Below the pieces are notes generated by a model. It saw only the letters and a program-made list of their open reading frames with translations. It searched no databases and was not told the origin of the DNA. Source: an uncultured Candidatus Bathyarchaeia archaeon (GTDB lineage: Archaea; Thermoproteota; Bathyarchaeia; Bathyarchaeales; Bathycorpusculaceae). From it: 64,000 nucleotides of DNA. Where the stretch lies: the NCBI GenBank assembly GCA_964475545.1, contig CAYYXF010000001.1:9107-73106 (forward strand), read 5' to 3'. The position numbers were made by a program, and so were the translations under genes. Each line of letters begins with the position of its first letter. Position 1 is the first letter of the stretch. Shown here piece by piece: positions 1,688 to 14,878 of the stretch.

Positions 1688-2938
1688 ATGAAGATGGCAG
1701 TGCTTGTTTACGAGTACCCCCCGAAGATTGTGGGCGGTTTGGGGACATATGCAGCTGAAATTACGCGCAAGTTTGTCCTGATGGACAACGATATAACCAT
1801 TTTCACGATGAATGATGATACAGGCAGTCTTCCAACACGCGAAATTTGGCGAGGCATAGAAATCCACCGCCCCATAGACATCGACGTTTCGGACTCACTT
1901 CCAGACGTAATCGCAGAAGACATCAAAAAATGGGGCAGAGGCATCCATCTGTTCTCCAAAATTCTTGTTTACAACTACCTGAGTGCCTCAAAACTAGTCA
2001 ACGAACTCATCAGAAAAGAAGGCATAAAATACGACCTTGTGGTTGCCCATGACTGGCTCTCAGCAATAGGTGGAATAACCGTCAAGAAAGAAGTCGGGCT
2101 GCCGCTGGCTTTCCATGTTCACTCAACTGAAAAAGGAAGAACACTAGGAAACGGCTCAGAAACTGTAAGCAACATTGAACTCCACTGTGCCATGGCAGCT
2201 GACGTGATAGTCACCGTTTCCTACGCCATGAAAGACGAGCTCACAAAGCTTGGGTTCCCAAAAGACAAGATACAAGTATGCTACAACGGTGTCGACCCGC
2301 AGAAATACAGCCCAGAAACAGTAAATGCTGAGCAAATCAAAAAAGTCAGAGAATTCTACGGCATAAAGGATGGCGAACTAATGATTCTCTTTCTGGGCAG
2401 ACTAGTAGGGGTAAAGGGAGTCGACAAACTCATAATGGCCATGCCACATGTTTTACAGAAAATACCAAAGGCGAAACTTGTCATCGTAGGCCTCGGCGAC
2501 CTGCAAGAATACTTGTCTAACCTAGTCAAAGCCACAAAAATGCAGGACTACGTGAAATTCCGCTTCGACTTCATCCCAGAAGAAGAACGCATTCTCCACT
2601 ATGCCGCATGCGACGTGGCTGTCTTCCCAAGCCTGTACGAACCCTTCGGGATCGTTGCGCTAGAAGCGATGAGCATGGAACGCCCGGTCGTAGTCGGCGC
2701 AGCAGGCGTAAGTGGAATGCGAGAAATAGTCATCTGCTGCGGCGAAGAACAATGCGGCTATCACGTGAACCCAAGCAACCCTTCAGACATAGCTTGGGGC
2801 ATAAACAGCGCCCTAGAAAATCCTGAGAAAATCAAATGGCTGGGCAAGAATGGCAGGCGCCGAGTCCTGAGCGAGTTTACATGGGACAAGATAGCTGAAA
2901 GAACGTTAGAGGTATACGAGCAGACCATAAAACGTTGA
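1688..2938 (+). CDS. Glycosyltransferase, GT4/GT5 type (glycogen-synthase-like fold)
   Basis: 416-aa ORF. The N-terminus (AVLVYEYPPKIVGGLGTY) has the (K/R)xGGL-like motif. The C-terminal E-x7-E motif is PSLYEPFGIVALEAM. A GGTGA-like element sits upstream of the ATG. Confidence 0.85.
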   Translation: MKMAVLVYEYPPKIVGGLGTYAAEITRKFVLMDNDITIFTMNDDTGSLPTREIWRGIEIHRPIDIDVSDSLPDVIAEDIKKWGRGIHLFSKILVYNYLSASKLVNELIRKEGIKYDLVVAHDWLSAIGGITVKKEVGLPLAFHVHSTEKGRTLGNGSETVSNIELHCAMAADVIVTVSYAMKDELTKLGFPKDKIQVCYNGVDPQKYSPETVNAEQIKKVREFYGIKDGELMILFLGRLVGVKGVDKLIMAMPHVLQKIPKAKLVIVGLGDLQEYLSNLVKATKMQDYVKFRFDFIPEEERILHYAACDVAVFPSLYEPFGIVALEAMSMERPVVVGAAGVSGMREIVICCGEEQCGYHVNPSNPSDIAWGINSALENPEKIKWLGKNGRRRVLSEFTWDKIAERTLEVYEQTIKR

Positions 2939-3588
2939 GCCTCAGCTCGTTCAAACGAAATGGTGAACCCTTGGATTTTGAAAGCCTAAGCTTAAGAAGA
3001 AGGATTGCCAGAGAGGCCGCGAACCTCCTATATTCCGGAGTTGAAAAAGAGTACAAACAGGCAAAACTTAAAGCTGCAAAAGCTTTTGGAGCAAATCTTC
3101 TTCCAACAAATCTTGAAGTTGCAATGGAACTGGACAGAGCAGCAGAAGAGAACGAAGGCCCAGCCAGGCATGATCGATTAGTCGCAATGCGAAGGGAAGC
3201 CCTAGCGCTGATGGAAATCCTGAAAGAATATAACCCCGTGCTGACTGGAAGCGTTTGGCGCGGAACAATACATCATGGTAGTGACATAGACATAGTTGTT
3301 TACCATGATCAGCCTGAAGAGGTCTTGAAAATACTAAGACGCAACAGCGTCAAGGTAACCCTAGCTGAACAAGTAGCCGTGACAAAGAAAGGAAGCAGGA
3401 AGGGCTCTTTTCACATACACGCAGAGTCTCTGGCTGGAGAAGAGGTAGAGATCAAAGTCTGCAGCCCCGAAGAAGCGGAAGTCAGAGTCAAATGCGAGAT
3501 ATATGGAGATCAGGTCGTGGGCCTTCGAACTGAGGAAGTGAGGAGGGTTCTTGGGCAAAATCCAGTGCAACGATTTGTGCCTTTCTAA
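2935..3588 (+). CDS. Pol-beta-superfamily nucleotidyltransferase domain protein
   Basis: 217-aa ORF. The TTG start overlaps the upstream stop (TTGA), suggesting translational coupling. It carries the GS-x(n)-DxD signature (TGSVWRGTIHHGSDIDIVVY) of minimal nucleotidyltransferases. Confidence 0.6.
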   Translation: MSLSSFKRNGEPLDFESLSLRRRIAREAANLLYSGVEKEYKQAKLKAAKAFGANLLPTNLEVAMELDRAAEENEGPARHDRLVAMRREALALMEILKEYNPVLTGSVWRGTIHHGSDIDIVVYHDQPEEVLKILRRNSVKVTLAEQVAVTKKGSRKGSFHIHAESLAGEEVEIKVCSPEEAEVRVKCEIYGDQVVGLRTEEVRRVLGQNPVQRFVPF

Positions 3589-3687
3589 ATTAGATGCCTC
3601 CCAAGACTGATTTGCCGCTTGCCGAATAGATGTTTAAATATGGCAATTTCCCCTAAATAACATGGAAAAGCTTCGCTTCAGCTGAGT

Positions 3688-4038
3688 GTGCCCATGGCAT
3701 TCGACAAGGAAACGATGAAAAGGATGTTCCCAAACCTTGCCAAGGAGCTAGACCCTGACGATAACAAGGTGGCAATAAACTCAGTGCGGACAGACACACC
3801 AACAGGGGAAAGTGCATCTTCAAAACGTTTTGTACACTACATGCCAGATGTAATAGACTTCATTCGCCGTTGCGACGCAATAGAGCAAGCAGAAGAAATA
3901 ATCGCGTACATGGAAAGAAAAGGTGAAATTCAAAGGCAATATGCTGACAAACTTAGGAACCAATTGAAAAAAGAAGGTCTAAGAAGCTTCGGACCAAAAA
4001 AGGAACACGATTACTACCTTAAACACGGTGAACCCTGA
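3688..4038 (+). CDS. Small conserved-looking hypothetical protein
   Basis: 116-aa ORF (the ATG at 3694 is the likelier start). It is hydrophilic with a basic C-terminus. A TTTAAATA TATA-like box lies at 3633-3640. I cannot assign a family by eye. Confidence 0.45.
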   Translation: MPMAFDKETMKRMFPNLAKELDPDDNKVAINSVRTDTPTGESASSKRFVHYMPDVIDFIRRCDAIEQAEEIIAYMERKGEIQRQYADKLRNQLKKEGLRSFGPKKEHDYYLKHGEP

Positions 4039-4234
4039 CCACAGGACCAGTTGATGCCAGCTCAAGTTCTCAATGCCGTGATAAGTGAACGTTGACCATG
4101 TTTCTATCAGTATTTCCTGAGGCGAATGGGCAAATATATACGCGGCCAGGGCTGGATATTTCCAAAAGTAAATAAATGGGCTTATCAATAGATAGACAGC
4201 TTAAAACTCGGGATGTCAGACGGAGGAAGACCCA

Positions 4235-5950
4235 ATGAAAAGAACAGCTTCACTGTTTACTATTTTAACTGTTGCCATGATAGTCCTTATATCAATTTCA
4301 TTCAACACCAGACCAGTCAAGGCGGAAGGAGAATACAGCATAGACCAAGTCTTTCACACAGTAAAAACCATGTATAATGGCTATGTTTTCATAAATGACA
4401 CTATGACGTTGAATGTGACCGCGGGAGGACCCACTGAATTCTTAATAGGTTTCCCAGACAGATACGGTCAGAGCGTTCTCAAATGTCTTGCCTTCAGCGG
4501 ATCAGAGATCTTTCCTGTGTCTCTTAACGTACCATTTGGCGGTCGCATGGGTTTCTATGGTGCGAGAGTGGATTTTCCGCTCGGAGCACCGCAAACTTTC
4601 ACCGTGGGATTTGTACTCTCCAACAGTCTCGTTATACAGGATCCCCAGAACGAGAGTCTGTATGGGTTGGACTTTCCGGCCTATCCGAGTTTGGTGAAAA
4701 AAGCTGGTCTCTGCAACGTATCAATCATCATTCCGCAAGGCGCTCTGTTCATGGGCGGGACAGTGAACAGTCTTGCGTACGGGCAGGAATTGCAGGAATT
4801 TACGAGTTTACCTGCACGCTTGGCTTTCCTAATATCCGTGGAGAGAATTACGATAGTTGACATAACAAATCTAAACCGCGACATAATCGTAAACGAGTTT
4901 GGTGGAATTAGCGGCGTTGACACCTATGATATCACAAATATGGCATCGCTGCCATTGACGGCCTTTGACGTGTTCCTGCCTCGTAACGCTTCCGATCCTC
5001 AAGCAACGGACCAGTTTGGAAGAAAGATGACTGACTCAACACAATCAGACGCGGATACGAACCGCTACGAAGTCGTTTTCAACGAGCGGGTCGAAAGTGG
5101 TAAGTCAAGCACATTTACCGTGATGTATTCTTTGCCTGGGAATTATCTTGCGCATGAAAGCGCTAACGTTTTCGCTTTGACACTTCCGTTGTTCGAATAC
5201 GAAAATTACTATACTGATCAGGCATGGGTCACCATCACCTTGCCTGAGGGCGCGAATGTCAATCTACTTGAGTACAACCTGACTGGAGAGAATTACAGCA
5301 TTGGAAGAGGAGTCTATCAGGAGACGGTTTCACTGAACCAAGAGCGCATCCTTGTGCTGGACAAGGTTACGCTTGGAGTCTCGTATGAATATGACCCGCT
5401 CTGGGCATCGTTCCGTCCAACCATGTGGGTTTGGGCAGCCGCAATCGTTGGATGCTTGGTTGGTGCTGTTGTTTGGCAGAGACCCAAGGAGCCAAGTCGC
5501 GCTCCTGTATCCGCTGTGGCATCGAAACTTGGTCCAGAATATTTCAGATCATTCGTCGACACTTATGATGAGAAGAAGAAGATAGATTTGGAACTGGACT
5601 CCTTGGAAGCAAGGATGGAAAAGGGCAGGATCCCAAGACAAAGATACAGGGTTCTGAGAAGAACGTTGGAGGCACGTCTCAGCGCAGTGTCCAGAAACCT
5701 AACGGAGTTCAAGGAGAGAATGCGTGCCGCTGGTGGCCAATATTCAGGGTTGATGCTACAGCTTGAAGTTGCAGAAGCCGAAATAAGCGAAGTCAAGGCC
5801 AATATCAAGAATGCTGAGACCCTTCACAATCGGGGAGAGCTCTCGTTAGAAGCTTACCGAAACCGTCTAGCAGATTATCAACGCAAGAAAGAAAAAGCTG
5901 AAACTACGATTAACGGAATTCTCCTGAGACTACGTGAGGAAATCCGATAA
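4235..5950 (+). CDS. Secreted type-I membrane glycoprotein, ribophorin I (OST1)-like candidate
   Basis: 571-aa ORF. It has a signal peptide (..RPVKA/EG), a ~365-aa ectodomain with 7 N-x-S/T sequons, one TM (residues 396-414) and a ~155-aa cytosolic coiled coil. That is the same topology as eukaryotic ribophorin I. Local matches as I recall RPN1: VTITLPEGANVN vs IILPEGAKNI, and RDIIVNEFGGISGVDTY vs [13 protein letters not shown]. The tail GELSLEAYRNRLADYQRKKEKAETTINGIL resembles [30 protein letters not shown]. Confidence 0.5.
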   Translation: MKRTASLFTILTVAMIVLISISFNTRPVKAEGEYSIDQVFHTVKTMYNGYVFINDTMTLNVTAGGPTEFLIGFPDRYGQSVLKCLAFSGSEIFPVSLNVPFGGRMGFYGARVDFPLGAPQTFTVGFVLSNSLVIQDPQNESLYGLDFPAYPSLVKKAGLCNVSIIIPQGALFMGGTVNSLAYGQELQEFTSLPARLAFLISVERITIVDITNLNRDIIVNEFGGISGVDTYDITNMASLPLTAFDVFLPRNASDPQATDQFGRKMTDSTQSDADTNRYEVVFNERVESGKSSTFTVMYSLPGNYLAHESANVFALTLPLFEYENYYTDQAWVTITLPEGANVNLLEYNLTGENYSIGRGVYQETVSLNQERILVLDKVTLGVSYEYDPLWASFRPTMWVWAAAIVGCLVGAVVWQRPKEPSRAPVSAVASKLGPEYFRSFVDTYDEKKKIDLELDSLEARMEKGRIPRQRYRVLRRTLEARLSAVSRNLTEFKERMRAAGGQYSGLMLQLEVAEAEISEVKANIKNAETLHNRGELSLEAYRNRLADYQRKKEKAETTINGILLRLREEIR

Positions 5951-7906: not shown

Positions 7907-9490
7907 TTGGAGAGTTGTTCACCTTTGAGCACACCTGAGAAACTGCGGAAAGCCGTTGAGCTAACCATTGCCGCAGGATACCAGCTAGACCAGGAGGCAT
8001 TTGGATTCTTAACCATAATAGCCGCAACGTCAGACCCGAGTGAAGTAATGAGCGAAGCGATAAAAAAGATGGAAAGCTTAAGCGAGAAACCGCCATTCAT
8101 TGAAAGAGGCTTCTTGGAGCAATTGCTAGAAAAAGCGAAATCAGCAGAAGAAATAGTGGATATCGCGCCAGAAGAACGAACTCCAGAACTGCCCGAGTCA
8201 CAGACAAAACAGTTGACAGAGGGGAAGACGTACTTCCACTCCTACGCAAAGGAAGTCGAGGCAGACATTACCATAATCGAAGATCCTAGCACCAAACTGC
8301 ACACAAGCGGCACTGTCGACGATTTTCTGGCCTATTTCCGAGATCGCTTTAAGCGAACAGAGAAGATGCTGCGACAAAGGATAGACGTCAAAAGCGCTTC
8401 ATCAGTCTTAGACGCTCTTAAGGCTGCGCCCAAGACGAAGATGAAGATTATTGGCATGGTAACTGAGAAGAGAGAATCGAAACAGCGGACTATCCTATCT
8501 GTTGAGGATTTGCAGGCCAATATCACGGTGCTCGTGCCGCAGAACGCCTCTGAAGAGCTAAGGAAAAAGGCACAACTTCTCTTGCTTGATCAAATAGTCT
8601 GCCTAAGCGTTGTCAAGACAAGAAGCAACCTCCTGGTTGCTGACGACATAATCTTGCCTGAAGTAGGTCAAAAACAGCCCCACAAGGCCCCGATTCCAGT
8701 CTACGCTGTGTTAACTTCAGACATGCATGTTGGCAGTACACAGTTCCAAAGAGAATCGTTCAACCGTTTCATTTTATGGCTGAACGGCAAATACGGAAAC
8801 GACCAGATGAAGGAAATCGCAAGCCATGTCAAGTACGTTCTGATTGCTGGCGACATAGTCGATGGTGTAGGAATCTACCCCAATCAGGTCAAGGAATTGG
8901 CAATCAGAGACGTATATAGGCAATATCGGGTAGCTGCAAAATATATGGAACAAATCCCTGACTACATACAGGTAGTGGTCATACCAGGAAATCACGACGC
9001 ACCAAGAAAAGCCTTGCCTCAGCCTGCGATTTCAAATGAGTATTTGGAGACTCTTCAAGAGTCAAGAGCTGTTTGCTCTCTTGGCAACCCTTGTTATCTC
9101 AGTTTGCACGGTGTAGAAGTGCTGATGTATCACGGGCGTAGCTTGGACGACGTGATCTCCACAGTCCCAGACATGAATCATAACAACCCGGAGAAAGCAA
9201 TGCGTCTGCTTTTGCAGAGCCGCCATTTAGCGCCAATTTACGGTGCGAAGACCACGCTGTCACCGGAGAGCAGAGATTTCCTTGTCATAGAGCGCGTACC
9301 AGACATATTTCACGCCGGCCACATCCATGCGCTAGGCTACTGCAATTACCGTGGGGTTTTGGTTGTAAATTCAGGCGGTTGGCAAGCACAGACAGGTTAC
9401 ATGCAGAGACTCGGGTTTATGCCGACTCCTGGGAAGGTGCCAGTTGTGAACCTTCAAACGTTGGAATCCATGGTAGTTTCGTTCTCCTAG
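7907..9490 (+). CDS. polB: DNA polymerase II (PolD) small subunit DP1
   Basis: 527-aa ORF (TTG start as called). It carries the calcineurin-like phosphoesterase motifs DMHVGS, GDIVDGVG, IPGNHD and AGHIHA, plus the OB-fold region typical of DP1. Confidence 0.9.
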   Translation: MESCSPLSTPEKLRKAVELTIAAGYQLDQEAFGFLTIIAATSDPSEVMSEAIKKMESLSEKPPFIERGFLEQLLEKAKSAEEIVDIAPEERTPELPESQTKQLTEGKTYFHSYAKEVEADITIIEDPSTKLHTSGTVDDFLAYFRDRFKRTEKMLRQRIDVKSASSVLDALKAAPKTKMKIIGMVTEKRESKQRTILSVEDLQANITVLVPQNASEELRKKAQLLLLDQIVCLSVVKTRSNLLVADDIILPEVGQKQPHKAPIPVYAVLTSDMHVGSTQFQRESFNRFILWLNGKYGNDQMKEIASHVKYVLIAGDIVDGVGIYPNQVKELAIRDVYRQYRVAAKYMEQIPDYIQVVVIPGNHDAPRKALPQPAISNEYLETLQESRAVCSLGNPCYLSLHGVEVLMYHGRSLDDVISTVPDMNHNNPEKAMRLLLQSRHLAPIYGAKTTLSPESRDFLVIERVPDIFHAGHIHALGYCNYRGVLVVNSGGWQAQTGYMQRLGFMPTPGKVPVVNLQTLESMVVSFS

Positions 9491-9543: not shown

Positions 9544-10794
9544 TCAGCTTCCACCGCCCCTGTGCTTTGAAAGGCATTTGGGCTCGTAGTCAACCAAACG
9601 TCCAAGCCTGTTATCACTGGCGAAAACGTTCTTGATGAGACTACGCGCTATTTCAAGTCTTATCTTCTTTGTGCGACCGTACCTCCCCATACTTATGACT
9701 TTCGCATTTAATAGGCCCATGGAGTCAAGCTCATTCACTAGCGAGCTTAGCCTTCGCTGGGTCAAGGGGGTCACCCCCATCTCTGCACATAGTTCATTGT
9801 AAACCTCGTAAATTTCGCCTGTAATTGCCCTAAGCACGTCAGCCTTGTTCAAGTGGTAGACACTTAGGACGACAAGTTTGGAATGCAAAGTCAAATTCTT
9901 CAGGGCTTCAATTACGCGGTTATGTTCAATGTGCTTCTCAGCCTCTCGAACGTGATCTTCGAGCACGACGCTTGCGCCTGATCGCTCCGCAACCTCGCCT
10001 GCAACTCGAAGAAGATCCAAAGCTCGCCGCGCATCCCCATGTTCAGCTGCAGCCAAGGCGGAACAGAGGCTCAGCGCTGACTCAGACAGCGCACCTTCAC
10101 AGAAAGCTGAAGTCGCACGCTCAAAAAGAATATTCCTTAGCTCACTGGCATCATAAGGCCTGAAAACCATCTCCTCTTCGCTGAGAGAACTCAGAACGCG
10201 AGGATCCAAAAACTCCTTCAACCGGAGATCGTTAGATATACCAATTAGGGAAACCTTACTGCTGGATAGAGTTTCATTTACCCTTGTCAATTCATAAAGA
10301 ACACCATCGCCTCGGATCTTTATCAACGCATCAGCTTCGTCCAAAGCTATTATGAATATAACCCTCGACACGTCCAGACCCGCCCTGAAACGATCAAACA
10401 ACTCTCCCACTGAGAGTCCCGTGAAGGGGACTGAAAGGCCTACACTCTGACATAAGCTAGCGAAGATCCGATATTCTGATCCAACCATCCGGCAGTTCAC
10501 ATAACAGAACTTGACCGGCGCGCTGAACTCCTTTGCTTTGGTCTCGAGATGACTCAGCACATATTTCGCTACTGCCGTCTTGCCAGTCCCAGTCTTCCCA
10601 TAGATGAAGACGTTGGAGCTGCGAGCACCCTTCAAAGCCGGAGCCACCGTCTCGCCAAGCTGTCTGATTTGCTCTTCCCTGTGAGGCAACCTGTCAGGCA
10701 AATAGTCATCTCGTAGGACCTCCCTATCCTTGAATATCTTTGCATTGTTGACGAATTTTTCGAACACGACATCAAGTATGTTAGGTTCAGGCAT
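9544..10794 (-). CDS. cdc6: Orc1/Cdc6 replication initiator
   Basis: AAA+ Walker A (GKTGTGKT), Walker B (IIALDEAD), sensor regions and a C-terminal winged helix. The ORF track starts at GTG 10827. The ATG at 10794 gives a 416-aa protein of typical length. It lies directly next to ORB repeats. Confidence 0.9.
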   Translation of the reverse strand: MPEPNILDVVFEKFVNNAKIFKDREVLRDDYLPDRLPHREEQIRQLGETVAPALKGARSSNVFIYGKTGTGKTAVAKYVLSHLETKAKEFSAPVKFCYVNCRMVGSEYRIFASLCQSVGLSVPFTGLSVGELFDRFRAGLDVSRVIFIIALDEADALIKIRGDGVLYELTRVNETLSSSKVSLIGISNDLRLKEFLDPRVLSSLSEEEMVFRPYDASELRNILFERATSAFCEGALSESALSLCSALAAAEHGDARRALDLLRVAGEVAERSGASVVLEDHVREAEKHIEHNRVIEALKNLTLHSKLVVLSVYHLNKADVLRAITGEIYEVYNELCAEMGVTPLTQRRLSSLVNELDSMGLLNAKVISMGRYGRTKKIRLEIARSLIKNVFASDNRLGRLVDYEPKCLSKHRGGGS

Positions 10795-10940
10795 ACATTT
10801 TCCCTCAGCAAGCTCCAGAGGTAGCACCTCTCTTTCCAGTTGAAGACATAAGCTCTGTCGTACAGAAAAATGGATGTACCCTACAAGAATCCTAAAACAG
10901 AAGCAGCTTGAACGTAGACTAAATCACCTGACATGACTGC

Positions 10941-10965
10941 CACACCCCAGAATTTCCTGTGGAAC
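10941..10965 (-). repeat. ORB-like origin recognition box 1
   Basis: The reverse complement reads GTTCCACAGGAAATTCTGGGGTGTG. It is 20/25 identical to ORB-2 and in inverted orientation. Confidence 0.75.
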
Positions 10966-11124
10966 TCTTTATTCCTTTGAGAAGTAATGTTGATTTCTTC
11001 TTCGTAGAAGAAAATACTCTGAACGGTAAGTATACAAAAATGACTATATTGCTTACTGTTGAACAAATTAAACATACACTACAAAGTTTCACATTACTAG
11101 TGCACTGAGTTTGCAGGCCTGAAT

Positions 11125-11149
11125 GTTCCAGTGGAAATCATGGGGTGTC
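11125..11149 (+). repeat. ORB-like origin recognition box 2
   Basis: GTTCCAGTGGAAATCATGGGGTGTC. It contains the classic archaeal ORB core TCCAGTGGAAA followed by a G-string. Confidence 0.75.
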
Positions 11150-11390
11150 TCGCTAGCAGTTCATCCTTTTTTCAAATATCCTCAGCACCGCCTGCATCCT
11201 GTACTTGTTAGTACACTTTCATCGCTAGCTACCTTCGCTTATTTGGCTCGCAGTTTGATAGATTCTCCCCCATATTTTTAGCGCACGCGTGTTCACTTTT
11301 TGAGAAGACCTTGTGAAATTAGCTTGATACTGTTTGATTTTCAGCCCTCGTTTCCAAATTATTTACTGCTTTATGCCTGTTTTATGTGAA

Positions 11391-11418
11391 CTAGACACCC
11401 CTGCGTTTCTACTGGAGA
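11391..11418 (-). repeat. ORB-like origin recognition box 3
   Basis: The reverse complement reads TCTCCAGTAGAAACGCAGGGGTGTCTAG, with the same TCCAGTnGAAA..GGGGTGTC architecture as ORB-2. Confidence 0.65.
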
Positions 11419-11612
11419 TCAGCTTATTTCCTTCAGTCCTTTCCGGTTCTGTCTTTCAGACAGCTGTGAAGCGTGTGTTGCATAACAGACTGCAATTTAT
11501 CCTTCTTTTCAGATTTCCTCCCTGAAAAGCGTCCTCTAGCCAGGCGCCGTTTCACCATAACAGCTATAACCTGTGAACTGTAGACTTGTGAACACCCAAG
11601 CGTGTTTCGCCA

Positions 11613-12044
11613 ATGCCTACGAGAAAGATGCGCGTCGAACTATTCGATAATGATGGCAATCGGTATACGATAGCGTTCGAAGGGCAAGTGACTAGAGAGA
11701 AAGCAGTACGGCTACTAGATTTGGTTGAACTCCTCGGTGGAATGCCTAATGAAGGAGGCAACGCTGAACCAAACCTGAATGTTCTTGGTAATGGACTCTC
11801 AAAATATGGCAGGGTTCGAGCGGTTCTCCAAAGGAGCTTTCCTCTCATTTGGTTCTGTTCAAAAGAGGTTCAAAATGCTTATGAGCAGGAATTCAAGGAG
11901 CCAATAACACTGAGCACTGTGGCTACGTACCTCTCAAGGCTGGCGACGAAAGGAGCGCTGATGAAGGCCGGGGCTCTTAACAGCCTAAAGTACAGGCTCG
12001 TGCAAAGCCCTCCAAAGGCCCAAGTTAAGCAATCAATACACTGA
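11613..12044 (+). CDS. Hypothetical protein with a C-terminal winged-helix-like domain
   Basis: 143-aa ORF immediately right of the origin. The C-terminal half (ITLSTVATYLSRLATKGALMKAG..LKYRL) looks like a wHTH recognition helix plus wing. Confidence 0.5.
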   Translation: MPTRKMRVELFDNDGNRYTIAFEGQVTREKAVRLLDLVELLGGMPNEGGNAEPNLNVLGNGLSKYGRVRAVLQRSFPLIWFCSKEVQNAYEQEFKEPITLSTVATYLSRLATKGALMKAGALNSLKYRLVQSPPKAQVKQSIH

Positions 12045-12070
12045 TTGGAAGAAACAAGCTCGCGCAGCGT

Positions 12071-12784
12071 CTAAGCTGCTGCACTTTCGGTCTTCTTCAA
12101 AAGTGCTTCCATCTCTTTCTTAACAGTATACTTGAATGGAATTTTGCTAGTATCCCTCTCTAAGTAGCCACCCTCGTAAAGCTTCTTCATCAGCCTTGCC
12201 GTGTGCTCGCGACTGAGTTTCACGCGATCCTTGATCTCAGGGGCCGTCTTCGGGCCCTCAGACGCCAACATTTCAAGAACAGACAATTCGGTCTCAGTTA
12301 GGGGTGCTAGAGCCTTGTCCCTCTTAAATGGAATCGCAGCCTCAACGTTGGCTTCAGGGATGACGGAGAGTTGCTTGACCTGTTCGTCCAAACCGGAGAT
12401 TCTTGCTGCAAAATTTGATTGTGAATTGATGACTTCCCGGACATTTTTGCCAAATTCCTCCAATCTTGACAGCATGCTGTCCTTATCTTGTAGGGCGGTG
12501 GAAACTCTGGCATCCATGGTTTGTGTAGCCTTTTGCACATCTTCCATCTTCTTCAAGGTTCCGTCAACCTTGGAAGAAAGGGCTTCCACTTTGAAAGCAG
12601 TAGCGTCAATTTTCTCGGCTTCGCGCTGCAATTGTCTACTATAACTCAATACAATGTCTTCTACAGCCTCTCTTGCCTTTTCGTATTCTCTTTGGGCCTT
12701 GCGGAGGATCCTATAATACCTGATCGCAGCACCTGCTGTCACAACAATCAAGAAGCTCATAAGAACCGTCAGCATATCTATCAC
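12071..12784 (-). CDS. Membrane-anchored coiled-coil protein with a C-terminal MarR-like wHTH
   Basis: 237-aa ORF. It has an N-terminal TM (LTVLMSFLIVVTAGAAI), ~130 aa of heptad-rich coiled coil, then LTETELSVLEMLASEGPKTAPEIKDRVKLSREHTARLMKKLYEGGYLER (wHTH). Confidence 0.6.
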   Translation of the reverse strand: MIDMLTVLMSFLIVVTAGAAIRYYRILRKAQREYEKAREAVEDIVLSYSRQLQREAEKIDATAFKVEALSSKVDGTLKKMEDVQKATQTMDARVSTALQDKDSMLSRLEEFGKNVREVINSQSNFAARISGLDEQVKQLSVIPEANVEAAIPFKRDKALAPLTETELSVLEMLASEGPKTAPEIKDRVKLSREHTARLMKKLYEGGYLERDTSKIPFKYTVKKEMEALLKKTESAAA

Positions 12785-12832
12785 GTGATTTCCCTCCGTG
12801 ATCTAAGTGTGATTACAGGCAACTCCATCACG

Positions 12833-12849
12833 TTGCGTCACACATCACA
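12833..12849 (+). repeat. 17-mer repeat copy C (TTGCGTCACACATCACA)
   Basis: It shares GTCACACATCACA exactly with copy A. It lies 17-33 nt downstream (minus sense) of a TTAAAT TATA-like element (12865-12870), at the expected TSS of the 12071-12784 gene. Confidence 0.5.
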
Positions 12850-12904
12850 CTCATTCCATACGAGATTTAAGTCTTATGGTGTTTTTGCCTGGCTGATGGT
12901 CGCA

Positions 12905-12921
12905 TGACGTCACACATCACA
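12905..12921 (+). repeat. 17-mer repeat copy A (TGACGTCACACATCACA)
   Basis: It contains the palindrome TGACGTCA fused to CACATCACA. It forms an inverted repeat with copy B (16/17 identity). Confidence 0.5.
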
Positions 12922-13063
12922 ATGGGGTCGCCGGCGGGCTCTCTTCGGTGATAAGGAATTGCTGTGCGATAACTGCCCTTTTTCTCGTCCTTTTTGGTTT
13001 TCGGGCTTGTCCGAAGCTTTTTTCTCTGTCCGTTTCTTTCGGTGTGTTTTGTTGGGCGTAGCT

Positions 13064-13080
13064 TGTGATTTGTGACGTCA
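13064..13080 (-). repeat. 17-mer repeat copy B (reverse complement TGACGTCACAAATCACA)
   Basis: Inverted copy of A with one mismatch. It overlaps the stop codon of the 13078-13557 gene. Confidence 0.5.
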
Positions 13081-13557
13081 CGGGGACCTTTTTGATGGAC
13101 TGGAGAGCTGTTTTAGGCTCATTTCTAGCTGTTCCCTGACCATTTCTATAACTTTTAGGTGACTTCCAAGCTCCTCACCCTTGTCAGGTAGGTGCTTGTA
13201 TGCTTCGAGGTATGTGTGGAGTTTGTTTGCTATCTCAAGGTAGGGGTCAAGAGCCGTGTCTTCAAACACTCCCAAGTAGCCCAAGAGTAGTATAGTATAG
13301 ATGGACTTTATGACATTCTCTTTGGCCTGTGCCAGAGTCCTGTTAAAGGCTCCGCGGCTTATTTTGGCCTTTGTTAGCCTCAATTGGGCCTTTTCGTCGT
13401 ATTTCAGCTGTTTCCCAGTGATGCTCTCGGCCAAAATGTCAATGAGCAGGGTTTCGAGCTGTGTCTTCGTTAAGTGGCTGTTTTTGGCCAGTATATTAGT
13501 TATGGGGTCGTTTAGGGAGCTATTTATCCACAGTTGGATGTCTTCTTTAAGCTTCAT
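13078..13557 (-). CDS. Hypothetical protein, possible Tfx/sigma-70-region-4-like HTH
   Basis: 159-aa ORF. The segment LTKTQLETLL...ISRGAFNRTLAQAKENVIKSIYTI resembles the LTxRQ..vL...SRanVs..e..AreNI.kA..T pattern of Tfx/LuxR-type HTH proteins. The similarity is weak. Confidence 0.4.
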   Translation of the reverse strand: MKLKEDIQLWINSSLNDPITNILAKNSHLTKTQLETLLIDILAESITGKQLKYDEKAQLRLTKAKISRGAFNRTLAQAKENVIKSIYTILLLGYLGVFEDTALDPYLEIANKLHTYLEAYKHLPDKGEELGSHLKVIEMVREQLEMSLKQLSSPSKRSP

Positions 13558-13690
13558 TATTGGTGTCCGTCCGCCCTTTGGAAAGGATACAGTTTCGTAT
13601 ACCTGCTCTGCTTTTAAATCTGTCGCGTTTTGGTGATTTGCACGCCAGCGTTCCTTTCACAAGCATTTTATCTCCTAATAGAGAACGCAT

Positions 13691-14878
13691 ATGGAGGAGT
13701 GCACATTGCCTTCGGGGTTTGAGCCCGCAGACCGCCTGAAACGCTTGAAATCGTCTGGAATACGCCGCTTTTTCAGTTCGGCGAAGAAAATGCCTGACAC
13801 TGTCAATTTAAGCGTTGGAGAGTCGGACTTTTGTCCCCCAGAGTATGTGGTTGACGCGAGTGCTCGAGCCGGAGGTGAGGGGAAGATGCATTACGAACCC
13901 ACCAATGGGTTACCTGAGTTGCGTGAAGCCCTAGCACAGAAGGCGCGTAAGGAGTATGGCTTGGGCTACAATCCGGACAATGAGGTTCTGATCACTGTAG
14001 GTGCCAGTGAGGCGATTTTCGCCACATTATTTGGGATAGTGAACCCAGGCGACGAGGTCCTTGTTCCGGACCCAGGCTTTGTGCTCTATGCACCCTGTGT
14101 GAGGCTGGTAGGCGGTGTCCCAATTTCTGTTCCGTTGCCGGAGGAGCGTGGTTTCAGATTGTGTGCTGATGATGTGATGTCACTAATCACAGATCGATCA
14201 CGTGTGATTATCCTGAACTATCCTAACAATCCCACTGGAGGCGTTCTTACATATGGGGAAGTTGTAGCTCTGGCAAAGGTTGCGGTTGAGCGTGATCTGA
14301 TCGTGATTTCTGATGAGGTTTATGAGAAGTTAGTCTATGATGGTGCTGGGCACCACTGCTTGGCAGTCTTTCCAGGCATGCGAGAGAGAACACTGATTGC
14401 CAATTCATTCTCTAAGACATATGCTATGACTGGCTTGCGAGTTGGATATGCTTATGGTCCCAGTGAGCTCACTTCGGCTCCTTGGCTTGTACACGAATAC
14501 ACTGTTACTTGTGTTAACAGCTTGGCACAGTATGCTGCTTTGGCAGCTTTGAACGGACCTCAGGATTTTGTAAAGGATCTGGTGAGGGAGTTTGGCAGAC
14601 GGCGAAACCGTGTTCACAAGCGGCTCAACGCGATTGGGGGCTTTCGTTGCGCCCTTCCGAAAGGCGCGTTTTACGCGTTCCCAAACATAGAAACGTTTAG
14701 CATGTCGTCGGAGCAATTCTCTGGGTCACTCGTGAAAGATGCTGGAGTCATCACGGTTCCAGGTTCTGCCTTCGGCAGCCACGGCGAAGGCTATGTCCAG
14801 ATTTCCTACGCTGCCGCGTACGAAGTCCTTGAAGAGGCATTGGATCGCATTGAAACTAGGGTCAGGAAATTAGGATGA
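13691..14878 (+). CDS. Class I/II PLP-dependent aminotransferase (aspartate aminotransferase-like)
   Basis: 395-aa ORF with the PLP-lysine motif SFSKTYAMTGLRVGY, an NPTG motif (NYPNNPTGG) and family-typical length. Confidence 0.85.
   Translation: MEECTLPSGFEPADRLKRLKSSGIRRFFSSAKKMPDTVNLSVGESDFCPPEYVVDASARAGGEGKMHYEPTNGLPELREALAQKARKEYGLGYNPDNEVLITVGASEAIFATLFGIVNPGDEVLVPDPGFVLYAPCVRLVGGVPISVPLPEERGFRLCADDVMSLITDRSRVIILNYPNNPTGGVLTYGEVVALAKVAVERDLIVISDEVYEKLVYDGAGHHCLAVFPGMRERTLIANSFSKTYAMTGLRVGYAYGPSELTSAPWLVHEYTVTCVNSLAQYAALAALNGPQDFVKDLVREFGRRRNRVHKRLNAIGGFRCALPKGAFYAFPNIETFSMSSEQFSGSLVKDAGVITVPGSAFGSHGEGYVQISYAAAYEVLEEALDRIETRVRKLG

Follow-up and report, generated by a model that had tools for sequence, protein, structure and literature searches.

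A gene trio conserved beside a bathyarchaeal replication origin, and the repeat array tied to its predicted membrane-anchored winged-helix protein

Why do three small genes stay directly beside a replication origin in lineage after lineage, and what might a DNA-binding protein with a predicted membrane helix be doing among them? The question is raised by a stretch of 64,000 nucleotides (the window) from an uncultured Candidatus Bathyarchaeia archaeon (contig CAYYXF010000001.1 of assembly GCA_964475545.1), in which the genes here called P1, P2 and P3 sit directly right of the spacer between the Orc1/Cdc6 initiator gene and P1 (Table 1). An initial annotation of the window had read them as a trio at oriC, and a check of the open reading frames (ORFs), together with three 24-mers in the spacer that resemble origin recognition boxes (ORBs; GTTCCAGTGGAAATCATGGGGTGT, 79–83% complementary between inverted copies), bears out their coordinates, lengths and position. 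We find that the trio is an ancient origin-adjacent gene block common to Bathyarchaeia, Nitrososphaeria and several other classes of Thermoproteota, and that it encloses a genome-unique array of short repeats tied to P2. As a tentative first choice among the explanations, we suggest that P2 uses the array to repress its own promoter, and that in doing so it would pin origin-proximal DNA to the membrane, in the manner of RacA, RocS and RicO.

A gene block kept beside the origin

P1, P2 and P3 are real genes and not chance ORFs, because each has thousands of homologues (2,676–4,281) and, within the order, 33–35 of 41 genomes carry it in single copy, nearly always on one contig with an orthologue of the initiator. 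The orthologues of this origin-linked paralogue (Orc1-1) that adjoin the trio in relatives are 58–86% identical. The databases name the trio homologues "hypothetical" or "MarR family" throughout. The order Orc1-ORB-P1-(NurA-like, HerA-like)-P2-P3-(aminotransferase)-CN hydrolase-NadE is kept, as far as the contigs reach, in all 80 close loci retrieved with a P3 profile. Among 39 loci from other bathyarchaeal families, Orc1 and/or the gene for the small subunit of PolD (PolD-small, PolDs) lies no more than 10 kb from P3 in 38, and P2 was called in 28, mostly adjoining P3. Across the class, P2 is present in single copy in 144 of 201 genomes and P3 in 164 of 201 (111 of the 121 high-quality ones). 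A phylum-level search brought up relatives of P3 in ten further families of other classes, and local profile searches of 20 loci recovered the order PolDs-Orc1-P1-P2-P3 in six of these ten. Homologues in Nitrosotalea devaniterrae (Nitrososphaeria; CUR50767 and CUR50770), annotated as "conserved protein of unknown function", adjoin orc1 where the genome record begins, and most of the distant lineages scanned have ORB-like TCCAGTGGAAA motifs in the spacer between Orc1 and P1. Co-conservation and origin linkage, by which the initial annotation had proposed to check its idea, hold in most bathyarchaeal lineages, in Nitrososphaeria and in other classes.

Rearrangements have left much of this arrangement standing. 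In family f35 (loci L128, L129, L130 and L138) the P1-P2-P3 block is inverted relative to Orc1 and intact, with TCCAGTGGAAA-type motifs on both sides; the inversion looks as if its breakpoints fell inside the origin. In f26 the ORBs remain with P1 though Orc1 is 3 kb away. One genome, G211, has two full PolDs-Orc1-P1-P2-P3 copies on separate contigs (L136 on C1 and L137 on C58), which points to a duplicated origin region or a mixed bin.

The initial annotation had called the block "system-like", but it is no obligate three-part system, P1 and P2 each having been lost where P3 stays. It consists instead of two separable modules, P1 on one side and P3, the array and P2 on the other, because P1 follows Orc1-1, whereas P2 and P3 depend on neither Orc1-1 nor P1. 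That P1 goes with Orc1-1 is drawn from its absence in 7 of 7 tested genomes without Orc1-1 (six in f24, f18, f21 and f33, and G116, which is 86% complete) and its presence in 8 of 11 tested genomes with it, counts that ignore kinship. In f24, f18, f21 and f33 (L112-L114, L107, L110 and L126) the Orc1-1 orthologue appears to be lost altogether and P1 with it, a paralogue of about 33% identity alone is left, and P3-P2 abut PolD-small. The P3-P2 spacer of f24 has grown to 0.6–2.4 kb; that of L112 consists of AT-rich DNA with TGTGA arrays on either flank. A search with positive controls found P2 absent genome-wide in f14, f23, f25, f26 and f27, which keep P3 and mostly P1; in f52 and f47 the P3-P2 pair is together but 12–30 kb from Orc1, and in f64 P1, the ORBs and Orc1 are together without P3.

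Many relatives carry, after P1 and on the same strand, a gene for a NurA-like protein (341–351 aa, weak PF09376) and one for a HerA/FtsK-like ATPase (519–527 aa, PF01935, with weak CedD/HerA NCBIfam matches), the two converging on P2 (for example L013:4554-7137 in G014 and L014:4518-7095 in G040). The pair is absent from the window (between 12044 and 12071) and from its genome and genus. In G007 fragments alone are left (C1:22658-23227), suggesting a deletion in progress. We considered whether P1, NurA and HerA form an operon that is the real system, and rejected it: the pair occurs in only part of the order, decays in G007 and was not found in any of the loci from other bathyarchaeal families or other classes. 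Because of this patchy distribution we regard it as an accessory insertion.

P2 and a genome-unique array

P2 combines three parts. A winged helix-turn-helix (wHTH) at residues 162–221 scores above the curated Pfam cut-offs of MarR (29.8 bits, cut-off 24.6), TrmB (28.6, cut-off 25.6) and HTH_27 (27.3, cut-off 22.2), which places the domain within the MarR/TrmB profiles, and it matches Lrs14/Sta1 weakly. It is preceded by a predicted transmembrane (TM) segment at about residues 3–22, in which the N-terminal 19-mer has a mean Kyte-Doolittle hydropathy of 2.05, and by a predicted coiled coil at about residues 28–150, which matches coiled-coil proteins only (Filament, chemoreceptor stalks, tropomyosin and designed coiled coils). 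The initial annotation had described just this build, one N-terminal TM helix, some 130 residues of coiled coil and a MarR-like wHTH; it had named no family for the three proteins, and by profile neither P1 nor P3 falls in a characterised one. Seven lysines or arginines lie in residues 22–45, just after the TM segment, and such a stretch therefore predicts a short N-terminus outside the cell and a cytoplasmic remainder. Translation is read from a GTG start codon with GGAGG 8 nt upstream.

This architecture is old. The TM segment is found in 116 of 120 P2 homologues and in that of Nitrosotalea, and in the thaumarchaeal homologues the TM helix is kept and the recognition helix is the same, with a coiled coil that is shorter. 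In an alignment of 12 sequences (37–70% identity) the recognition helix SREHTARLMKKLYEGGYLER is invariant and the stalk variable. Some P2 homologues bear names such as "chromosome segregation ATPase" or "SbcCD ATPase subunit" in records of the Joint Genome Institute (JGI), which are evident mis-annotations arising from coiled-coil or low-complexity sequence.

Several familiar identities do not fit P2. Only its wHTH core (about 55 aa) fits MarR/TrmB, with no match to TrmB_C or another effector domain, and an ordinary MarR/TrmB layout, which for MarR is a soluble homodimer of about 150 aa with dimerisation helices on both sides of the wHTH and for TrmB includes an effector-binding C-terminal domain, is set aside in that the rest of P2 is TM segment and coiled coil. 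A membrane one-component regulator of the ToxR/CadC type would need a sensor, and here the TM segment starts at about residue 3, leaving at most about 4 residues outside. Nor does the trio look like a defence system: in PADLOC, P1 and P3 had no match at all, and those of P2 were wHTH and coiled-coil noise only.

The 293-bp spacer between P3 and P2 holds three copies of a 17-mer (TGTGATGTGTGACGTCA), two direct and one inverted on the P3 stop codon. Each is made up of successive TGTGA pentamers spaced 7 bp apart, in a direct-direct-inverted arrangement. With up to two mismatches allowed, the 17-mer occurs nowhere else in the 1.53-Mb assembly, and the array is the sole site in the assembly with at least four TGTGAT/ATCACA hexamers in 300 nt (0.13 expected). 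A second Orc1/Cdc6 paralogue (30% identity) is encoded on a short contig (G000:C79:148-1254), where there may be a second origin; no other TGTGAT cluster was found in the assembly, this contig included.

The sites are placed like those of an archaeal repressor that acts on the promoter of its own gene. Site C, which begins 21 nt beyond a TTAAAT box (12870-12865), falls where transcription of P2 is expected to start; site B, at a distance of 72 bp from C, is upstream of the TATA box of P2. Among the close relatives, site A (consensus TGTGACGTCACAAATCACA) is kept in 80, and B (TGTGAtgTGTGAtgTCAT) and C (TGTGATgTGTGATGCAAC) in 79, with a B-C spacing of 67–73 bp and, in the roughly one half where a simple match was found, a TATA-like box 20–23 nt upstream of site C. 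The distance from A to B ranges over 138–206 bp, and the sequence between them is variable. In other bathyarchaeal orders and in Nitrososphaeria, TGTGA is likewise enriched between P3 and P2 (6–11 copies, about 1 expected).

The array is tied to P2. Every class locus in which P2 adjoins P3 has it (2–10 copies), those without P1 included, and in ten loci with P3 and P1 but no P2 it is essentially absent (0–2 copies). Rfam gave no match at E ≤ 1 over positions 10500-14000, and the arms of the inverted 17-mer vary without compensation, so that we read the array as a protein-binding DNA site and not as an RNA stem. A 54-aa ORF (12917-13081, minus strand) between sites A and B is an unlikely gene, since the variable spacer that it exactly spans is conserved neither in sequence nor in length (138–206 bp in relatives). 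The A-B spacer (12923-13030) is A-rich on the coding strand of this ORF, with T-tracts on the plus strand, and a gene or small RNA there is doubtful.

Table 1. Positions of the features discussed, as numbered in the window
Feature	Positions	Strand	Remarks
PolD small subunit (PolDs)	7907-9490	+	Pfam
Orc1/Cdc6 initiator, origin-linked paralogue "Orc1-1"	9544-10827	-	Pfam Cdc6_C 2e-27, Cdc6_lid 2e-24, AAA domains
oriC spacer, 785 bp	10828-11612		Orc1/Cdc6-P1 gap; non-coding, with three ORB-like elements
ORB-like 24-mers	10942-10965, 11125-11148, 11393-11416		inverted repeats
P1, 143 aa	11613-12044	+	predicted N-terminal beta-hairpin + helix, disordered linker, C-terminal wHTH
P2, 237 aa	12071-12784	-	predicted TM segment and coiled coil; MarR/TrmB-type wHTH
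Array site C, TGTGATGTGTGACGCAA	12833-12849	-	TGTGA heptad 17-mer
Array site B, TGTGATGTGTGACGTCA	12905-12921	-	TGTGA heptad 17-mer
Array site A, TGTGATTTGTGACGTCA	13064-13080	+	inverted 17-mer, overlaps P3 stop codon
P3, 159 aa	13078-13557	-	all-alpha in the model, probable helix-turn-helix (HTH)

Membrane attachment, inherited order or initiation

If P2 is the protein that binds the array, the parts can be assembled as follows. P2 would sit in the membrane by its N-terminal helix and expose next to nothing on the outside. It would probably dimerise through its cytoplasmic stalk, presenting MarR/TrmB-type winged helices; these heads would bind the three conserved 17-mers. As the 17-mers lie on both sides of the P2 TATA box and over the place where transcription is expected to start, P2 would repress itself. 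P2 is the most economical candidate for the binder because its recognition helix and the candidate half-site are conserved over the same phylogenetic depth. Since the protein has a predicted integral helix and nothing points to its release, an occupied operator would bring the locus to the membrane: P2 being unable to leave it, DNA 1.4–1.7 kb from the nearest ORB (array at 12833-13080, ORB ending at 11416) would be held there. P3 would act as a soluble, more widely conserved and probably HTH-bearing partner or co-regulator, encoded immediately upstream. In the other module P1, a small wHTH protein that has the ORB-bearing origin spacer as its promoter region and is retained only together with the origin-linked Orc1, may bind DNA in association with the origin or with Orc1, or else its expression may depend on whether Orc1 occupies the ORBs. 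The initial annotation had imagined P2 as a tether of origin or chromosome to the membrane; the conserved architecture and the genome-unique array on the P2 promoter, present only where P2 is, speak for that idea. Binding to oriC itself finds no support, the TGTGAT motif being absent from the ORB spacer.

Several further observations weigh against membrane attachment as the purpose of the locus. Nothing links the trio proteins to oriC DNA itself. Because the array lies within P2's own promoter, the joint loss of array and P2 can be simple co-deletion, which is no proof that P2 is the binder, and P3 or P1 could bind the array instead. P2 has been lost in at least five bathyarchaeal families and P1 in several, and neither is essential to origin function; P2 and P3, moreover, persist beside PolD-small in lineages without Orc1-1. 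The P2 homologues of f43 and f50 (L150 and L153), families of other classes, seem to have no TM helix; these are either soluble coiled-coil-wHTH proteins or proteins whose true starts lie upstream of the ORF used. Finally, an autoregulatory operator would be fully explained with no chromosome-positioning role at all.

This last point leads to the main rival, which we consider a substantial possibility: the three could be ordinary autoregulated transcription factors that owe their place at oriC to inherited gene order and play no part in replication, segregation or DNA positioning. P2 would then be a repressor situated in the membrane and acting on its own gene, perhaps also on P3 or genes nearby. 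The classical repressor geometry of sites B and C, the MarR/TrmB/Lrs14 type of the P2 wHTH and the dispensability of P1 and P2 in some lineages all agree with it. So does the wider neighbourhood, for PolD-small, NadE and the C-N hydrolase are also syntenic within the order, and part of the linkage is therefore likely to be plain inheritance. There is also a precedent. The haloarchaeal cluster oapABC (= arvABC), a conserved set of three genes on the opposite side of the main oriC from the origin-linked Orc1, was long suspected of a role in replication (PMC7002104), and its products, a small Arf/Sar-like GTPase, DUF2073 and DUF2072, proved to drive the formation of extracellular vesicles (PMC10927574), which by analogy suggests that origin adjacency need not mean origin function. 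Yet the linkage to Orc1 and the ORBs has outlasted moves of NadE, the C-N hydrolase, the aminotransferase and even PolD-small across classes, as well as a local inversion, and this speaks against mere inherited order. A regulator with neither another genomic target nor a sensor domain has no obvious regulatory purpose, and a repressor fixed in the membrane would necessarily drag its operator there.

We think it improbable that all three proteins, or P1 and P3 at any rate, serve as accessory initiation factors acting directly at oriC with Orc1-1, as a loader like WhiP/Cdt1 or an origin-specific regulator, to which P2 was a later addition. The argument for it begins with P1. In most lineages scanned P1 directly abuts the ORBs, and it always keeps to the ORB cluster, even where Orc1 is 3 kb away or on the other side; the co-loss of P1 with Orc1-1 described above points the same way, although the count may reflect few events, and three genomes with Orc1-1 are without P1. 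In its AlphaFold2 (AF2) model (predicted local distance difference test score, pLDDT, 68; alignment of 36 sequences) a beta-hairpin and helix at residues 4–41 are followed by a disordered linker and an H-H-H-beta-beta winged helix, for which Foldseek finds the winged helices of Fur, PadR, RosR, MecI and AspA (probability 1.0, E about 0.01); the beta-hairpin domain had no Foldseek match, and P1 none among PDB sequence profiles. The C-terminal wHTH of the initial annotation is thus upheld by model topology, by the Foldseek matches and by the sole Pfam match up to E 1, which is to Penicillinase_R (E 6e-4) and below threshold (20.6 bits, cut-off 22.6). We do not take P1 for a BlaI/MecI/CopY repressor, as the match is below the cut-off and the wHTH of that family is N-terminal, with a dimerisation/cleavage domain at the C-terminus, whereas that of P1 is C-terminal after an unrelated beta-hairpin domain; nor for a WhiP/Cdt1 initiator, as no Cdt1-type profile matched and the model has a single wHTH where two in tandem are expected. 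Its 2,676 homologues are all named "hypothetical".

P3 also has a claim to such a role, being near-universal and single-copy in the class and the most conserved of the trio (82% identity within the genus). Its AF2 model (pLDDT 71.7; like that of P1, of medium confidence) is all-alpha with seven helices, and the top Foldseek entries in the PDB are replication proteins (the DnaB N-terminal domain and GINS), though none is significant (best E 0.11, TM-score ≤ 0.37). The Foldseek comparison proposed in the initial annotation gave a fold for the wHTH of P1 and none for P3. No match came from Pfam at E ≤ 1, from NCBIfam or from PDB sequence profiles, a profile search of 1.84 billion representatives yielded 296 clusters only, and among 75 diverse family members no Pfam family recurred, DUF134 appearing weakly (E ≥ 0.019) in 2. 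The conserved motifs, LTxxQLETLLID ... (S/T)RGAFNRTLxQAxxNV ... YTxLLLGYLG, resemble by eye an HTH of the GerE/sigma-region-4/Tfx/DUF134 type, and P3 probably carries an HTH followed by a helical C-terminal half; the weak Tfx/sigma-region-4-like HTH first proposed for it is a likeness of motif, with the two weak DUF134 matches as its counterpart in the profiles. The thaumarchaeal homologue of 120 aa (cluster of P0512, Nitrosotalea) is named "Mg2+ and Co2+ transporter CorA" in some JGI records, an evident mis-annotation. What speaks against initiation factors is that neither P1 (scanned to E 1) nor P3 matches a replication family in Pfam or NCBIfam, and that P3-P2 persist in lineages without Orc1-1 and P1.

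The second idea of the initial annotation was that P2 is a membrane-sequestered transcription factor. In the form in which regulated proteolysis frees it for distant genes, like anti-sigma or RIP-type circuits, we hold it to be very unlikely: a membrane anchor with a cytoplasmic DNA-binding domain is compatible with it, but some 2–4 residues outside the membrane leave no sensor, the motif that looks cognate is neither repeated nor clustered elsewhere in the genome, and no protease gene is conserved in the block.

Known systems and wider meaning

Membrane attachment of origin-proximal DNA by P2 has its closest likeness in RacA (Bacillus subtilis), RocS (Streptococcus pneumoniae) and RicO (Staphylococcus aureus), bacterial anchors of the origin to the membrane or pole, with which P2 has in common a small HTH and, as predicted for P2, a self-interacting coiled coil and membrane attachment. 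P2 joins DNA-binding domain, coiled coil and predicted membrane attachment in one polypeptide, and does so down to Nitrosotalea. The bacterial proteins bind specific sites clustered near oriC, and the P2 locus has a genome-unique candidate cluster 1.4–1.7 kb from the nearest ORB. The differences are considerable. The domain order is reversed, with the TM segment of P2 N-terminal and the wHTH C-terminal; the DNA-binding domain is of MarR/TrmB type in P2 and of MerR type in the others; the anchor of P2 is a predicted integral TM helix, theirs an amphipathic helix or a DivIVA partner; P2 has a single array of three 17-mers on its own promoter, whereas RicO has nine ricS sites and the binding sites of RacA are multiple; and the host of P2 is an archaeon. 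No sequence homology was detected between P2 and these proteins, and there is no MerR match among the best 25 of P2's 44 Pfam matches (all up to E 0.047). We therefore mean the comparison as "works like", by analogy, and not as "member of". As a precedent, proteins that unite HTH, coiled coil and membrane helix anchor origins in Firmicutes, and in RocS a TM domain can take the place of the amphipathic helix (bioRxiv 10.64898/2026.03.06.710092).

Archaeal regulators of the MarR/TrmB/Lrs14 kind resemble P2 in the wHTH core and in an operator that overlaps their own promoter; MarR has flanking dimerisation helices where P2 has its TM segment and long coiled coil, and P2 has no ligand-binding domain. 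Homology of the trio to OapABC was rejected, as the domain content differs and no such match came up for P1 or P3, nor among the best 25 of P2's 44 Pfam matches; oapABC is a single co-directional operon of unrelated proteins, and the trio is made up of a wHTH protein, a TM-coiled-coil-wHTH protein and an all-alpha orphan.

A further comparison concerns the array. Omega of pSM19035, which recognises 7-bp WATCACW heptads, and ParR with parC of R1 are plasmid centromere-binding autorepressors, both ribbon-helix-helix proteins, acting on iterated short repeats that lie on the promoter of their own operon and serve as operator and centromere at once. The TGTGA array recalls theirs in its 7-bp repeat spacing, its direct and inverted units and its place on the promoter of its candidate binder P2, and the core ATCAC/GTGAT is common to it and the omega heptad. 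The candidate binders here are, however, (w)HTH proteins, and no gene for a motor of ParA/ParM type was seen among the block genes examined. In the boldest reading the locus would be an archaeal attachment of the origin after the replicon model, P2, from Bathyarchaeia to Thaumarchaeota, binding a single centromere-like heptad array beside oriC and holding or segregating the origin region at the membrane, with P1 as an Orc1-1-dependent factor and P3 as a partner, and thus a new chromosome-organisation module of the PolD-bearing Thermoproteota; we regard this as rather doubtful.

Our literature searches brought up no account of this cluster for either Bathyarchaeia or Thaumarchaeota. To our knowledge, the positioning and segregation of archaeal chromosomes are largely obscure outside SegAB in Sulfolobus, and we know of no origin-membrane link described for Thaumarchaeota or Bathyarchaeia, which are among the most abundant archaea of soils, oceans and sediments. 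The locus offers a concrete and inexpensive experimental handle in three small proteins, one genome-unique array of about 250 bp and homologues in cultivated ammonia oxidisers. Should inherited order prove to be the whole explanation, the trio would be the second case, after oapABC/arvABC, of origin-adjacent conservation without origin function, and would still define three widespread orphan families. Should P2 bind the array, a protein fixed in the membrane would hold origin-proximal DNA at the cell envelope, whatever its "purpose" in doing so.

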